Assembly: GCA_003144275.1 (NCBI GenBank)
Contig: NJBF01000060.1
Coordinates: 1-15,065, forward strand
Length of the DNA stretch: 15,065 nt
Direction: 5' to 3'
From: Candidatus Heimdallarchaeota archaeon B3_Heim
GTDB taxonomy: Archaea > Asgardarchaeota > Heimdallarchaeia > Hodarchaeales > Hodarchaeaceae
Below are positions 2,459-14,888 of the stretch, piece by piece. The stretch's first letter is position 1. The number at the start of each line of letters is the position of its first letter. The notes under the pieces were generated by a model that worked only from the letters and a program-made list of their open reading frames with translations, made no database searches and was not told the DNA's origin. A program made the translations under genes and the position numbers.

Positions 2459-2746
2459 ATGACAGAGAAAGTTTCATTCTATGCAGACGAGAAAGCATGG
2501 GAAAGATTTAAAGATCAAGTTTATCGGTCTAGCGGAACCACACGAGCACTCAGTACTGAACTAAATAAACTTATTGAGGATAAAACATTAATTAAACTGG
2601 AAACACAATTAAAGGGATTAATACCAACCGAAGAGAAGTCCTCTTTCACTCTAGAAGAGATAAAAAAAGAAAGACCTACTCCTCCGGAAAAAGCAGAAAA
2701 CTTAATTCGCAAAATGAGGTCTGGGAATGCAGGTATATCTGGATAG
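2459..2746 (+). CDS. vapB: Putative antitoxin (RHH-like N-terminus)
   Basis: 95 aa, KVSFYADEKAWERFK strand-helix start, overlaps the downstream PIN gene by 20 bp. Confidence 0.7.
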   Translation: MTEKVSFYADEKAWERFKDQVYRSSGTTRALSTELNKLIEDKTLIKLETQLKGLIPTEEKSSFTLEEIKKERPTPPEKAENLIRKMRSGNAGISG

Positions 2747-3212
2747 TTCCATGATTGTTAAACGCTATATACAAGAGGAAGGAACCTCCTTTGCTGATTT
2801 CATTTATGAACAAGCAAATCAAGGGTACTTAACTATAACCTACAACCTTTTGAACATAGGAGAAGTATTGGGAGTATTCGACCAGTACTTAAACCGAAAA
2901 TGGATAACGAAAGACTCATTTGATGTACTTATAGCAAAATTTATTGATGAAATGCTACGACTTTTGCGCTTAGACAGGTTAATTATCATTCCAACCCATA
3001 GCACTCTCCAAATGGAGGCCTGGCCATTCATCTTAGAAAATCGCTTGTATATTGCTGATGCACTTCAATTAACAAGTGCATTGTATGTTAATACCCGATT
3101 ATTTGTCTCAGGGGATAAGGAATTAAACACAGTGGCACAGAAAAGCAATTTAGAGATATATCTCCCTACAAAGGAGAAAGAGATTATCCAAATGATAAGA
3201 AAACAAAGATAA
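2727..3212 (+). CDS. vapC: PIN-domain VapC toxin
   Basis: VYLDSSMIVKRY, NIGEVLGV, LYIADALQLTSA and FVSGDKEL PIN motifs. Confidence 0.9.
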   Translation: MQVYLDSSMIVKRYIQEEGTSFADFIYEQANQGYLTITYNLLNIGEVLGVFDQYLNRKWITKDSFDVLIAKFIDEMLRLLRLDRLIIIPTHSTLQMEAWPFILENRLYIADALQLTSALYVNTRLFVSGDKELNTVAQKSNLEIYLPTKEKEIIQMIRKQR

Positions 3213-3365: not shown

Positions 3366-3825
3366 AAGACCACAGGACATGAGATCAGAATTTTCTCAAG
3401 AAAACAACACATATCCGCTAATTGAATCCTGAAGGCTGTTTTTCTAAAAAAACGAGAGGACTGAAAATTTCCACATTTCTTCTAAGAAAGAGCCCGTGTG
3501 CGATTAGTAGCAGCTGACTGAACATGTCGATCGAAACCTCCACGCGTATTTCCAGTAGAAAATTGCTCTATCAACGGGATGTTCTATCCTAGCACTCGTT
3601 TACCGTTTCATGGTTATCATCGCCAATCCCCATGGCTTAACGCTGATGACAAAATGGATTCGTCTTTTCGAGGTCCGTTTCGTGCTTTTTCTTAAAGAAA
3701 GCATTCAGCACTTATCTATTAGCGCGTGGCTGCTGGGCAGTACCCTTCCTGATTGCCCGTACACTAGAGGCGCCCATACCCTGTTCCTCTCGTACTAAGG
3801 GCACGTTCCTCTCACGAATCCAACA
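3366..3825 (-). repeat. Repeat copy R2 (full length: 23S domain VI plus trailer)
   Basis: CCTGAAGGCT at 3428, ACGAGAGGACTG at 3452, rRNA-homologous part about 3490-3825, sarcin-ricin loop at 3783-3796. Confidence 0.95.
3490..3825 (-). rRNA. Partial 23S rRNA domain VI pseudo-copy (disrupted in H97)
   Basis: Reverse complement contains the SRL, GATAAGTGCTGAATGC, GTTGATAGAGC and GCTACTAATCGC as in LSU 3' ends. The conserved GCATCTAAG is replaced by a palindrome at 3688-3700. Confidence 0.75.
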
Positions 3826-8475: not shown

Positions 8476-8720
8476 TGACCACTATCGCTTGCGAGGAAAT
8501 ATTAACTTTCTAAAAAACTCACGAACACACGCTATTAGACTCCTGAAGGCTTTTTTTATGAAAAAACGAGAGGACTGAAAATTTCCACACTATTCCAAGA
8601 AGAGACACCCTTGTGCGATTAGTGGGAGTGTGTATTAAACACTAAACATGTCGACGGGCCTCCACGCGTATTTCTTTAAAGAAAATTGCTCTAATAGCGG
8701 AATTTCTCTCTAGAAGAGCA
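8476..8720 (-). repeat. Repeat copy R3 (trailer plus about 110 bp of 23S 3' end)
   Basis: CCTGAAGGCT at 8542, ACGAGAGGACTG, TGTGCGATTAG, AACATGTCGA, CCTCCACGCGTA and TTGCTCTA; homology fades near 8700-8720. Confidence 0.9.
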
Positions 8721-9745: not shown

Positions 9746-9828
9746 AAGACCAGAAGACGCAGGAACACACGTGTTACGACTCCTTAAGGCTATTACTTTT
9801 CAGTAAAAGAGAGGACTGACACCTTCCC
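9746..9828 (-). repeat. Repeat copy R4 (trailer only, shortest)
   Basis: AAGACCAG...AACACAC...ACGACTCCTTAAGGCTATTACT..AGTAAAAGAGAGGACTG matches the R3 and R6 trailers. Confidence 0.8.
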
Positions 9829-9847
9829 GCCCTCGAACCGTTTTTTA

Positions 9848-11516: not shown

Positions 11517-12353
11517 ATGCGAAAATTCTACTCAAAGAATTTCTTAATTGTCTTTTTTCTCTTATTATACCTCTATCCAATTCAAAGCATACATTGTACT
11601 TCCCATAATGAACCAAGACTTATCCCTTTTATCGGAATGGTTTTAAAATATAGACTGGAAGCGCATCTTGAAGTAGGATTACCTATACCAATACCAGTCA
11701 TTGCAAACTGGACAGTTGTCTGGGAACAGTATAATACATCAAACCCCGATATTTTTATATCTCAATTAACTTTAACATCGCTTTATTTGACTTTGTACGG
11801 TGGAATTGGTCAAGAATCTGGTATCATTGTAGAGAATATCACTTCTCGCCGGGTATTATGGGTTGAGATGGAAAATACGACCTTTTTAGAGAAAATGTAT
11901 TCACTATATTATGCTCCACATCGACCCAATTATTCTCCTTTTTATATTCCCACAGAAGATCTAGGTATCAACAGTAGTATTGGTATCTACAATTATTCAA
12001 TGACTGTTATTGCTAAAGATAGAATTGCAGTGAGTGAATTTGGTTATCGTGATGTGTGGATTATACATAAAAATGTGACAAGTTCAAGTGCGGTGAACCA
12101 TTTTATTAGCTTAATCTATGATGAGATTACAGGTGTTCTTGTGGGAGGCAGTCTTTACACCCATTGGTTTTGGGAGAATGGTACTGAGCATATATACAGT
12201 GTTAAAATTATTTGTCAGTCTACAAATGCATTAGCAAGGCATTTAATCATCATTAGACCCAATGAACTACTTGCTATACTAATTAGTTGTGTACCAATAA
12301 TCCCCTCTTTAATGAAAATAATGAAGTTCAAGGAAATCAGAGGTGGTCTCTAG
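11517..12353 (+). CDS. Secreted/membrane-anchored hypothetical protein
   Basis: Signal-peptide-like N-terminus, beta-rich body, C-terminal hydrophobic segment with basic tail. The stop codon abuts R5. Confidence 0.65.
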   Translation: MRKFYSKNFLIVFFLLLYLYPIQSIHCTSHNEPRLIPFIGMVLKYRLEAHLEVGLPIPIPVIANWTVVWEQYNTSNPDIFISQLTLTSLYLTLYGGIGQESGIIVENITSRRVLWVEMENTTFLEKMYSLYYAPHRPNYSPFYIPTEDLGINSSIGIYNYSMTVIAKDRIAVSEFGYRDVWIIHKNVTSSSAVNHFISLIYDEITGVLVGGSLYTHWFWENGTEHIYSVKIICQSTNALARHLIIIRPNELLAILISCVPIIPSLMKIMKFKEIRGGL

Positions 12354-12734
12354 TTTTTTTTCTAAGAAAACGAGAGGACTGACCATTTCCACATTTCTTC
12401 TAAGAAATAGTCCGTGTGCGAGGAGTGGGAGTGTGTCATAAACACTGAACATGTCGACCGAGGGCTCCACGCGTACACAACTGCTCTGTCAACGGGATGT
12501 TCTATCCCAGCACTCGTTTACCATCTCATGGTTACCGTCGCCAGTCCCCATGGCTTTGCGCTGATGGCAAAATGGATTCGTCTTTTCGAGGTTCGTTTCG
12601 TACTTAGATGCATTCAGCACTTATCGGTTAGCGCGTGGCTGCCGGGCAGTACCCTTCCGGATAACCCGTACACTAGAGGCGCCCATACCCTGTTCCTCTC
12701 GTACTAAGGGCACGTTCCTCTCATGAATCCGACA
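12354..12734 (-). repeat. Repeat copy R5 (full 23S domain VI plus trailer lacking the CCTGAAGG end)
   Basis: ACGAGAGGACTG at 12370, rRNA-homologous part about 12409-12734, sarcin-ricin loop at 12692-12705. Confidence 0.95.
12409..12734 (-). rRNA. Partial 23S rRNA domain VI copy (best preserved)
   Basis: Reverse complement has the SRL, CTGCCCGGCAGC and GATAAGTGCTGAATGCATCTAAGTACGAAAC (close to canonical GATAAGTGCTGAAAGCATCTAAGCACGAAAC), then an extended H98 and H100-H101. Confidence 0.8.
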
Positions 12735-12796
12735 ACTAGAATAGAAGAAAAAGTATTGGATTTCATAACGTAATAGGCTTTAAGAGAGGATCTAGA

Positions 12797-13285
12797 TTAA
12801 ATAATTCTTGAACGTAACCTTAAGATTCGTTTAGCTTTTTGTTTGGGGATAATTTTCCACTCACGAAATAACCTGACTACCTGATAAAGCTCATTGGGAG
12901 AAATCTCTCCTTCCAGTAGCAAAAAACCAAAATAATCAGCAATATGTAGTGCTTTTAATGCGCCATTCATCGTATTTTCTAGCAACATTGGATGATCTTC
13001 TGTAATAATAGGATAACCAGAGAATTCACCATATTCCAAGAGTGAAGCATCAGCTTCATCAAAACACTGTTTAAGAAATTTGTTGAAATGTTTGTTTAAC
13101 CTCGGAAGGATTGTCACATTACGAAAAAAGACCTCTTCATCAGGAAAACGATGGAGTAACTCCTTGTGAACATCATGTGTAATCATAAATTCTTTTCGCT
13201 CCATTATTCTCGAAATTAAGTTAGAAAAACCATTATCTCGTAAAAGAAGGATGTAGAACCATGAAAGAGTATCAACTCCAAACAT
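12797..13285 (-). CDS. PIN-domain (DUF3368-like) protein; true start likely MFGVDT at 13285
   Basis: GVDTLSW, THDVHKEL, DEADASLL and IITEDH acidic PIN pattern. Confidence 0.72.
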   Translation of the reverse strand: MFGVDTLSWFYILLLRDNGFSNLISRIMERKEFMITHDVHKELLHRFPDEEVFFRNVTILPRLNKHFNKFLKQCFDEADASLLEYGEFSGYPIITEDHPMLLENTMNGALKALHIADYFGFLLLEGEISPNELYQVVRLFREWKIIPKQKAKRILRLRSRII

Positions 13286-13307
13286 GGTTTGAAAAACCAA
13301 CACAAGC

Positions 13308-13315
13308 TTTATAAA
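13308..13315. promoter_or_regulatory. Palindromic TATA box shared by two divergent, likely leaderless genes
   Basis: TTTATAAA lies 23-30 bp from both ATG 13285 (-) and ATG 13338 (+). Confidence 0.6.
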
Positions 13316-13337
13316 CATATTGGCCTGTTATCTAACC

Positions 13338-13706: not shown

Positions 13707-13818
13707 TACGACTCCCGGAGGCTATTACTTCTAGTAAACGAGAGGACTGCCCATTTCCACACTAATTTTTCATTAGTAGCCCGTGTGCGATTAGGGGGAG
13801 TTAAATTTCTAAGACTCC
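13707..13818 (-). repeat. Repeat copy R6 (trailer plus a few rRNA bases)
   Basis: TACGACTCCCGGAGGCTATTACT..AGTAAACGAGAGGACTGCCCATTTCCACA..GCCCGTGTGCGATTAG. Confidence 0.88.
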
Positions 13819-14719: not shown

Positions 14720-14888
14720 CCTGAAGGCTATTTCTGCAAAAGAAACGAGAGGACTGAAAATTTCCACAACTCTAAAAAGAAAGAGCCCGTGTGCGAGGAG
14801 TGGTAATATGTCTTAAACATTAAACTTGTCGGTTGAAATTTCTATGTATAATTCTTGAATAAGACCCCTCTCTCATCGGGATTGTTCT
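14720..14888 (-). repeat. Repeat copy R7 (trailer plus degenerate 23S 3' end)
   Basis: CCTGAAGGCT at 14720, ACGAGAGGACTGAAAATTTCCACA, GAGCCCGTGTGCGAGGAGTGG, and CTCTCTCATCGGGATTGTTCT (14868-14888), which resembles CTCTGTCAACGGGATGTTCT. Confidence 0.88.

Follow-up and report, generated by a model that had tools for sequence, protein, structure and literature searches.

The window analysed here is the 15,065-nt contig NJBF01000060.1 (contig C65 of the host genome, G000) of Candidatus Heimdallarchaeota archaeon B3_Heim, whose assembly comprises 3.95 Mb in 103 contigs and is 94% complete. Our subject is a set of partial 23S rRNA gene copies in this window, which we call tails, and the mini-palindromes that they carry. 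Two minus-strand matches to the Rfam model of archaeal large-subunit (LSU) rRNA (LSU_rRNA_archaea, RF02540; model positions 2721–2973) were found at 12431–12734 (169.5 bits) and 3498–3825 (139.3 bits). Both of these long copies span domain VI, i.e. H94, the sarcin–ricin loop, H96, H97, an enlarged H98 and H99–H101; in this lineage H98 (expansion segment ES39) has about 55 extra nt. The tails start at the first base of domain VI, the remaining 23S is missing, and all are co-oriented. The tails are separated by small groups of accessory genes (PIN toxins, DsbD-like, thioredoxin, ArsP, ArsR, Fic, ABC ATPase and GNAT). In G000, the tail repeat is confined to four contigs (C9, C50, C65 and C79), which we refer to as the array contigs. 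No full 23S gene of the host is assembled, and the two window copies are the only RF02540 matches in G000. For comparison we used a 22-genome family, in which slots (the sites of the palindromes) were measured between conserved flanks in all tails fetched. The genomes are metagenome bins of one genus, apart from G015 and G019, whose genuine 23S genes belong to another family. Two close relatives, Candidatus Hodarchaeota archaeon YT2_004 (G003) and YT2_065 (G021), possess the same repeats. The tail copies are kin, and counts of them therefore overstate independence.

Tail R2 (3376–3825, minus strand; nhmmer tail model positions 1–420) is a spare 23S tail consisting of domain VI (H94–H101, matched by RF02540) and a 3′ trailer. 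It carries hairpin-forming palindromes at slots A, D, E and F and at a site in the distal trailer, and is native at slots B and C. Slot A (3683–3701), the apical loop of H97, measures 19 nt compared with 10 nt in the native state and holds TTTCTTAAAGAAA (3688–3700); the native sequence, CATCTAAGCA, is found in R5 and in four genuine 23S genes. At slot D (3548–3565), on the 5′ side of the H101 internal loop, 18 nt including TTTCCAGTAGAAA (3549–3561) stand in place of 9 nt. The remaining R2 hairpins lie in the trailer. Slot E (3475–3493), directly past the 23S 3′ end, has 19 nt instead of 9 nt and contains TTTCTTCTAAGAAA (3476–3489), and slot F (3437–3451) has 15 nt instead of 5–6 nt, composed of a T-run, CT and an A-run. 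A seventh site (3391–3404) holds the T-first palindrome TTTTCTCAAGAAAA, which also occurs in the C9 copy.

Other tails have other combinations. R5 (12353–12734, minus strand) is the most rRNA-like tail, with the 169.5-bit Rfam match; its slots A, B and D are native, hairpins are present at C (12428–12444), E (12393–12411) and F (12358–12370), and its trailer ends right after slot F. R1 is in two fragments on the minus strand. In R1b (2319–2387; end of ES39/H98, H99 and H100), slot B, the H100 apical loop, has TTTCTTTTAAGAAA (2329–2342) instead of the native loop between GGGAT and ATCCC, and the predicted fold extends the GGGAT/ATCCC helix by 4 bp. R1a (1933–2099; 3′ strand of H101 and trailer) has hairpins at C (2070–2086), E (about 2035–2052) and F (1996–2010). 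The 5′-truncated tail R3 (8521–8705, minus strand) has a perfect TTTCTTTAAAGAAA at slot D (8671–8684), together with hairpins at C (8625–8641), E (8589–8608) and F (8551–8565). With respect to the slots in the rRNA body, the window is thus a mosaic: R2 has A and D, R5 has C, R3 has C and D, and R1 has B and C.

A first-pass annotation of this DNA had proposed that a TTTCTT/AAGAAA palindrome overwrites different rRNA positions in different copies. The palindromes that it quoted are present at every position, including the trailer copies at 3476–3489 and 3391–3404, of which the latter is a variant. The strict motif, TTTCTT(N0–2)AAGAAA, occurs five times in the 15-kb window, compared with an expectation of 0.03 (sd 0.16); none of 200 shuffles reached five, and all five occurrences lie inside 23S tail copies. 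Genome-wide there are 23, close to the ∼19 expected from hexamer counts. The window makes up 0.4% of the genome and contains five of these 23, and a sixth (C9:2786–2799) lies in another tail copy. A count inside and outside the repeats showed enrichment in tails only, in support of a motif that is specific to the repeat and not a general intergenic feature. The same held for the wider class of perfect palindromes (6-nt arms, loop of 0–4 nt). Those with a T-first arrangement were 9.0-fold denser in the array contigs than elsewhere, compared with 0.9-fold for A-first and 0.8-fold for other palindromes. Outside the arrays, T-first and A-first palindromes were equally common (0.066 and 0.062 per kb), and within the arrays all but three of the T-first palindromes fell within tails.

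Two length states at six slots

Across the 22-genome family, each of the six slots fell into two sharp length classes. The native and hairpin states measured 10 and 19 nt at slot A, 6 and 14–15 nt at slot B, 9 and 18–19 nt at slot D, 8 and 17–18 nt at slot C (3′ side of the H101 internal loop), 9 and 17–20 nt at slot E, and 5–6 and 14–16 nt at slot F, where four copies were further enlarged to 24–25 nt. The net gain was always about 9–10 nt. Comparison of 20 long tails of the genus with the genuine G007 gene turned up no insertion of at least 4 nt in the rRNA body other than these 8–10-nt inserts (21 instances at four slots). The slot comparison also supported the proposal that similar palindromes replace native rRNA nucleotides at differing positions among copies. 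All rRNA-body slots fall in loops that were unpaired in the old rRNA fold. The inserts had been described as lying often at helix apices, and this is correct for the H97 and H100 apical loops; Infernal alignment placed the 3688–3700 insert in the apical loop of H97, and the 3549–3561 insert, at the site where CACAAC is native, in the 5′ strand of H101, which is an internal loop and no apex.

We defined a genuine 23S gene as one in which the Rfam match continues upstream of model position 2721. Four such genes were available, from G004 and G007 (same genus) and from G015 and G019 (another family), and all four have the short state at every rRNA-body slot. The expectation that the host's real 23S is free of these palindromes is therefore borne out among relatives, while the host's own gene is not in the assembly. 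Judging from these four genes and from hairpin-free tails of the same clade, the palindromes are probably absent from working rRNA. A scan of genome contigs for the slot A junction returned only displaced tails of two other Hodarchaeota metagenome-assembled genomes and chance matches, with host records possibly excluded from that scan, and two metagenome scans for a genuine 23S carrying a hairpin gave no matches. The idea that the inserts inactivated these rRNA copies does not fit the copies themselves, which begin at domain VI and lack the rest of the 23S, and so were never functional.

Symmetry and history of the inserts

The insert palindromes are 13–16 nt long, with arms of 5–7 bp, and up to six or seven are present per tail. 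Their 5′ arm is T-rich and their 3′ arm A-rich, on whichever strand they are read, and the best ungapped stems at every slot scored 0.8–2.4 points over shuffles. When arms were compared pair by pair (n = 734), 659 pairs were Watson–Crick, 30 were G/T and 34 were A/C. As G/T and A/C pairs are equally rare, there is no sign of the G·U tolerance expected of RNA from one strand, and the symmetry is either a DNA-level property or one needed on both strands. A hint of sense-strand bias, and hence of a one-strand RNA function, had appeared in RNAfold predictions; it came from the included flanks and was gone in the unbiased arm count. Isolated hairpins are predicted to be weak (about −1 to −2 kcal/mol). 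In predicted folds, the hairpins lengthen H100, lie inside the H97 loop or branch from H101, and the parent helix is left intact.

The sequence of the arms turns over while their structure is kept. At slots E and F, changes in one arm are mirrored in the other at constant length (ACTAAT/ATTAGT, ATTGTT/AACAAT and TTACT/AGTAA). Allowing at most one mismatch per arm, the fit to the motif among distinct hairpins was 5/5 at slot A, 4/8 at B, 7/10 at D, 24/43 at F, 6/47 at E and 0/11 at C. Identical 11–14-mers are nevertheless common to different slots: TTTCTTAGAAGAAA occurs at D, E and F, and further 11-mers are found at A, E and F and at B and F. These patterns bear on the earlier suggestion of a single protein-binding site, that is, of repeated operators for one dimeric DNA-binding protein. 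Dyad symmetry and the recurrence of the TTTCTT/AAGAAA consensus at A, B, D and F would suit an operator, and the cassettes encode helix-turn-helix and antitoxin-type regulators (ArsR and DUF6290). However, the strict motif is in the minority, spacers vary from 0 to 5 nt, arms at the same slot covary to unrelated sequences (ACTAAT/ATTAGT, ATTGTT/AACAAT and GTGT/ACAC), and matches to the motif are lacking at slot C and limited to six of 47 hairpins at slot E. We consider such an operator very improbable.

To place the inserts in time, a maximum-likelihood tree of 22 long tails was built from non-slot columns only. The tails of G000, G003, G021, G022 and G023 formed one clade (SH-aLRT 98), within which the hairpin load is nested. 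A G022 tail has none, G023 has E and F, and R5 has C and E; the load then rises to A, C, E and F in the C9 copy, to A, D, E and F in R2, and to A, B and D in G003 and G021, in which single slots are native in some copies. Exceptions to the nesting (slot A is native in one tail of G003 and slot D in one tail of G021, and slot C is patchy) indicate that states were later reshuffled by conversion. A direct trace of exchange is seen at C9:2760–2830, where one hairpin is bordered by the slot B flank on its left and the slot D flank on its right, and the 32 nt lying between the two hairpins of a G003 tail are missing; hairpins can thus recombine with each other. The different positions occupied in different copies had been attributed to recurrent installation. 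They are better described as about one gain per slot along one tail lineage, common to three species, followed by recombination.

The same tree bears on whether the hairpins could be micro-expansion segments native to the real 23S rRNA in this group of species, with the tails as snapshots of it. The assemblies of G000, G003 and G021 lack the real 23S gene, all positions are loops that tolerate growth, H98/ES39 is already enlarged, and among the rRNA-body hairpins of G000 tails that of slot C is the commonest, all of which would be compatible with such segments. Asgard rRNAs are known for unusual expansion segments. Like the expansion segments at H98/ES39 and H101/ES41 and like bacterial intervening sequences, the inserts represent growth at helix tips and internal loops, adding a new small helix to the trunk. 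Those, however, reside in working rRNA genes, whereas the inserts described here were seen only in non-functional partial copies. In addition, the four genuine genes, two of them from the same genus, have no insert, and hairpin-free tails (G022, G023, and R5 with respect to A, B and D) share a well-supported clade with loaded ones. Nor are the states nested as snapshots of one gene would be (A and D without C, C alone, B and D without A), and the H97 loop GCAUCUAAG is conserved in the archaeal LSU consensus. Native expansion of the working gene is, in our assessment, highly unlikely.

Proposed origins and roles: copying, cassette joining or transcription stops

The data show where the inserts sit and that their sizes are fixed, that four genuine genes lack them, that they are palindromic with no strand bias and restricted to the arrays, that they accumulated in nested order, and that one deletion took place between two hairpins. 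Whichever process is responsible, fixed size, loop targeting and T-first polarity are properties that any mechanism must explain. No slot is accounted for by one clean insertion, as 2–4 bases outside the flanking boxes also differ; these flanking changes indicate that about 4–6 native nt were replaced by 13–16 nt. The inserts do not copy native sequence within 60 nt in either orientation, and their longest reverse-complement matches to it were 4–6 nt long, the same as in shuffles. Local inverted duplication, by fold-back repair or a simple local template switch, was rejected since no donor was found within this distance. Likewise, target-site duplication or a pure 9–10-nt insertion does not fit, because neighbouring bases are changed and the inserts are no copy of their flanks. 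Bulge–helix–bulge mini-introns were dismissed on inspection, as the folds are simple hairpins or helix extensions lacking paired bulges. Off-centre nicking of a hairpin or cruciform, worked through with pencil and paper, predicts either direct duplication of the loop or A-first order, and neither is observed.

The view that the inserts are footprints of insertion and excision can be stated more broadly, as tiny remnants of mobile elements: excision footprints, or collapsed terminal inverted repeats from a tail-targeting miniature transposon. One ∼14-nt sequence at several slots, a fixed size increment and an insert foreign to its neighbourhood would be expected of such remnants. Small hairpin elements that invade mitochondrial rRNA genes are also known (PMC2800124). 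These repetitive hairpin and double-hairpin elements of sponge mitochondria resemble the inserts in being small, AT-rich or balanced hairpin repeats that occupy non-coding DNA and rRNA genes. They too use length-tolerant sites and are sometimes stacked, and one hairpin family appears at several unrelated positions (here H97, H100, H101 and the trailer). The inserts differ in being much smaller (13–16 nt), in being restricted to spare 23S tails and not spread intergenically, in being missing from the functional rRNA genes examined, and in lying on an archaeal chromosome and not in an organelle. REP/BIME sequences (repetitive extragenic palindromes and the mosaic elements that they form), with their RAYT transposases, and the Rickettsia palindromic elements are likewise short extragenic palindromes able to land in RNA genes; those, however, have hundreds of dispersed copies, and REPs have a Y1 transposase, whereas the palindromes here are at chance level outside the arrays. 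No flank is duplicated, so there is no target-site duplication and the footprint proposal is not supported. A longer element with TTTCTT...AAGAAA ends was not seen, although no systematic search for one was made. The motif is not dispersed elsewhere in the genome, no match to a Y1/HUH transposase (PF01797) exists in the 94% complete G000, and a scan for the trailer box (a conserved element of the trailers, described below) in viral contigs gave no match. Remnants of mobile elements are therefore a quite doubtful source.

We tentatively favour a mutational copy-and-paste origin, while regarding it as well short of established: a palindrome already present in the trailer would have been copied into loops by template switching or short-patch conversion, and gene conversion would have spread the copies. 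This is suggested by the complex nature of the replacements, by the lack of a source in neighbouring native sequence and by the 11–14-mers common to different slots. With a similar degree of reserve, we regard the mini-palindromes as possible secondary patches that accumulated in spare, displaced 23S tails, and not as features of working rRNA. In the proposed course of events, cassettes would have accumulated behind the 23S gene, leaving tails in one orientation that start where domain VI starts and play no part in the ribosome. The trailers of these tails (slots E and F) would next have acquired an AT-rich, T-first palindrome about 15 nt long. Then, in one lineage (three Hodarchaeota species), palindromes of the same kind would have replaced 4–6 native nt at the apices of H97 and H100 and on both sides of H101, with about one gain per position and a net 9–10 nt each. 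Each gain would be a copy-and-paste event, through template switching in replication or short-patch gene conversion from an existing palindrome. The arms would be kept complementary at the DNA level by template switching within the hairpin, by selection or by both, and recombination among tails would have produced the mosaic of the window. We infer the copying mechanism, as well as the statement that no dedicated function is needed. There is a published precedent, since template switching has been reported to create and maintain hairpins in rRNA (PMC8794818; Mönttinen and Löytynoja 2022). As in those cases, a few bases are replaced in one step by a stem-forming segment, and the same process could keep arms complementary without selection. 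The published events, however, copy a nearby reverse complement, whereas here the native neighbourhood offers no donor, which leaves other palindrome copies as the sole plausible source.

Several observations weigh against a copy-and-paste origin. A donor for template switching was not demonstrated and no microhomology was seen at the junctions. Since the host 23S is unassembled, the probable lack of palindromes in the real gene is judged from related genomes and from tails in the same clade that have no hairpin. A purely mutational process has difficulty accounting for the unvarying increment of 9–10 nt at six sites, the constant T-first polarity or the near-fixed length of slots E and F despite sequence turnover, all of which look like constraint. 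In addition, truncated tails often start at slots (57/77), which would fit a role in breakage and joining, although the copies are related. The fixed quantum, T-first polarity and length constancy keep two functional explanations alive.

The first is that the hairpins are working break-and-join sites of a cassette system, comparable with integron attC sites in acting as structure-specific DNA or single-stranded DNA hairpins. Joining would be carried out by an enzyme or would follow from hairpin-provoked breaks and homologous recombination. The palindromes are array-specific. They keep the same structure and length despite changes of sequence, and their Watson–Crick pairing is free of G·U bias, as expected for DNA and not for RNA of a single strand. 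The 57 of 77 5′-truncated tails that start near slots do so in slot windows amounting to 30% of the length, and cluster at C (36), E (13), B (5) and D (3). Some junctions fall within hairpin C, such that short tails retain only its 3′ arm, slots B and D are fused through one hairpin in C9, and R5 ends directly after slot F. The second-order enlargement to 24–25 nt at slot F suggests that the tip of a hairpin may itself be a target. In contrast, 3′ ends of tails are not clustered at slots (6/30), and the clustering of starts may stem from a few multiplied founder truncations. As such founders could give the same picture, we treat the link between truncation and slots as a lead and not a result. 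Matches to PF00589 in G000 are located on contigs C27, C80, C98, C61, C77 and C101, with none on C9, C50, C65 or C79. All tyrosine and serine recombinases of the genome are on non-array contigs, and the open reading frames (ORFs) of the window have no recombinase domain. The four array contigs thus encode no recombinase, and the Y1/HUH result given above also counts against such a system. Arms of 5–7 bp are too short for stable cruciforms, the hairpins are weak, and six sites per tail exceed what a recombination site needs. Integron attC sites are similarly sequence-variable but structure-conserved palindromes, located at the boundaries of gene cassettes with or without promoters, and are array-specific. 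They differ in being single imperfect hairpins of 57–141 nt with R and L core boxes, as opposed to several ∼15-nt hairpins on an rRNA scaffold, and the arrays here have no IntI-type integrase or attI beside them. Overall, attC-like joining appears rather unlikely. The narrower proposal that the hairpins are break-and-join sites of an integrase-free or unknown-enzyme cassette system behind an Asgard 23S gene, built on an rRNA-derived scaffold, seems slightly less likely again.

The second functional explanation is a bidirectional transcription stop or insulator, in which RNA polymerase would meet a T-tract whichever way it approached, so that convergent cassette genes would be kept apart and read-through out of the rRNA operon would be blocked. 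The tails sit between gene ends: the stop codon at 12351–12353, for instance, is separated by 4 nt from the hairpin of slot F, and R2, R3 and R6 are downstream of plus-strand genes. Symmetry without strand bias would suit a need on both strands, and a variable hairpin is also present past the trailer in relatives, including the genuine G004 operon. Archaeal termination needs oligo-T and is not known to need hairpins, which counts against a hairpin-based stop, and we took at least five Ts as the minimal archaeal stop signal. At slot F, such runs occur in 17/43 hairpins in the sense direction and 20/43 in the antisense direction. Elsewhere sense runs are scarce (0/5 at A, 0/10 at D, 0/11 at C and 7/47 at E); counting each strand, there are 0–3 at slots A–D and 7–8/47 at slot E. 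A terminator style general to this genome was rejected, as T-first palindromes are no commoner than A-first palindromes outside the arrays, and this same lack of preference speaks against stops at the slots. Up to six per tail would also be excessive. A role in stopping transcription is thus improbable.

The interest of the tails differs between these explanations. Being free of ribosomal selection, they record what happens to rRNA-shaped DNA when it is unprotected, and nearly all of their insertions are fixed-size palindromes in loops. If the process is mutational, it would reveal an active mechanism for generating hairpins in archaea closely related to eukaryotes and would offer dated, countable events for testing template-switch models. 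If instead the hairpins are functional, they would be the first candidate recombination sites of Asgard rRNA-anchored cassette arrays, for which no integrase was found.

Remaining tails and adjoining sequence

Four further tails complete the minus-strand set in the window. R0 (1–117) holds the first 114 nt of domain VI (H94, the sarcin–ricin loop and H96) and runs off the start of the contig. R4 (9770–9830) is a short, trailer-only tail, the slot F hairpin of which, TTACTTTTCAGTAA (9791–9806), has no fit to the motif. R6 (13707–13803) is a short tail beginning at slot C, with ACTAAT..ATTAGT at slot E (13761–13780) and TTACT..AGTAA at slot F (13723–13737); an identical copy of its slot E insert is present in G003. 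R7 (14720–14883) is 5′-truncated near slot D and has hairpins at C (14803–14819), E (14768–14786) and F (14729–14744). In R1, about 230 nt of unrelated AT-rich DNA (2100–2318) take the place of the stretch from slot D to the H101 apex and split the tail into R1b and R1a, an example of foreign DNA inside a tail and not between tails. Adjoining the long tails that retain the sarcin–ricin loop are two PIN-domain toxin genes (PF01850) and a third small ORF without a Pfam match (140–544, 2727–3212 and 12797–13318).

Positions 1–127 of C9 are identical to the R5 stretch 12621–12747 (minus strand), including 12–13 nt of non-rRNA flank, after which the sequences diverge. This 127-nt identity looks like a branch of an assembly graph with k = 127, and either the array is polymorphic in the sampled population or one more near-identical copy is present.

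Deletions in the rRNA body of tails are few and similar in size to the insertions (loci L046, about 250–679, L052 and L034). They include a 7-nt loss between CGCCACG direct repeats in a displaced tail of G007, also visible in a G012 tail in the alignment, and a 9-nt loss in the most diverged G003 tail.

The trailer boxes (e.g. 3453–3464 and 12372–12383; ACGAGAGGACTG on the plus strand and CAGTCCTCTCGT in the rRNA sense) are nearly the reverse complement of the sarcin–ricin loop, ACGAGAGGA. Copies of this loop are located at 74–87, 3783–3796 and 12692–12705, and in the long copies they lie about 330 nt upstream of the trailer box. The genuine trailers of G007 and G004 have CCTATCGT, which is one mismatch poorer against the sarcin–ricin loop. 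This complementarity may be due to chance or may reflect long-range pairing.

In tails of relatives, the trailer box GGTCTGATGTCTG is followed 10–35 nt on by a hairpin with copy-specific arms (L006, L007, L045, L046 and L066–L068). Arms at this position include GTTGC/GCAAC, TATTTC/GAAATA and TGTTTTC/GAAGACA, and the genuine G004 operon also has such a hairpin. Variable small hairpins may thus be native to the 3′ flank of the operon and a possible source of palindromes. Short palindromes are also seen at the opposite end of tails. In L010 (G001:C52), a TTTCTT-AAGTC-AAGAAA palindrome abuts a long tail just upstream of its start, at the fixed 5′ joint, and other long tails have different short palindromes at their 5′ joint (CTTAT-CT-ATAAG and GAAT-GTGT-ATTC).

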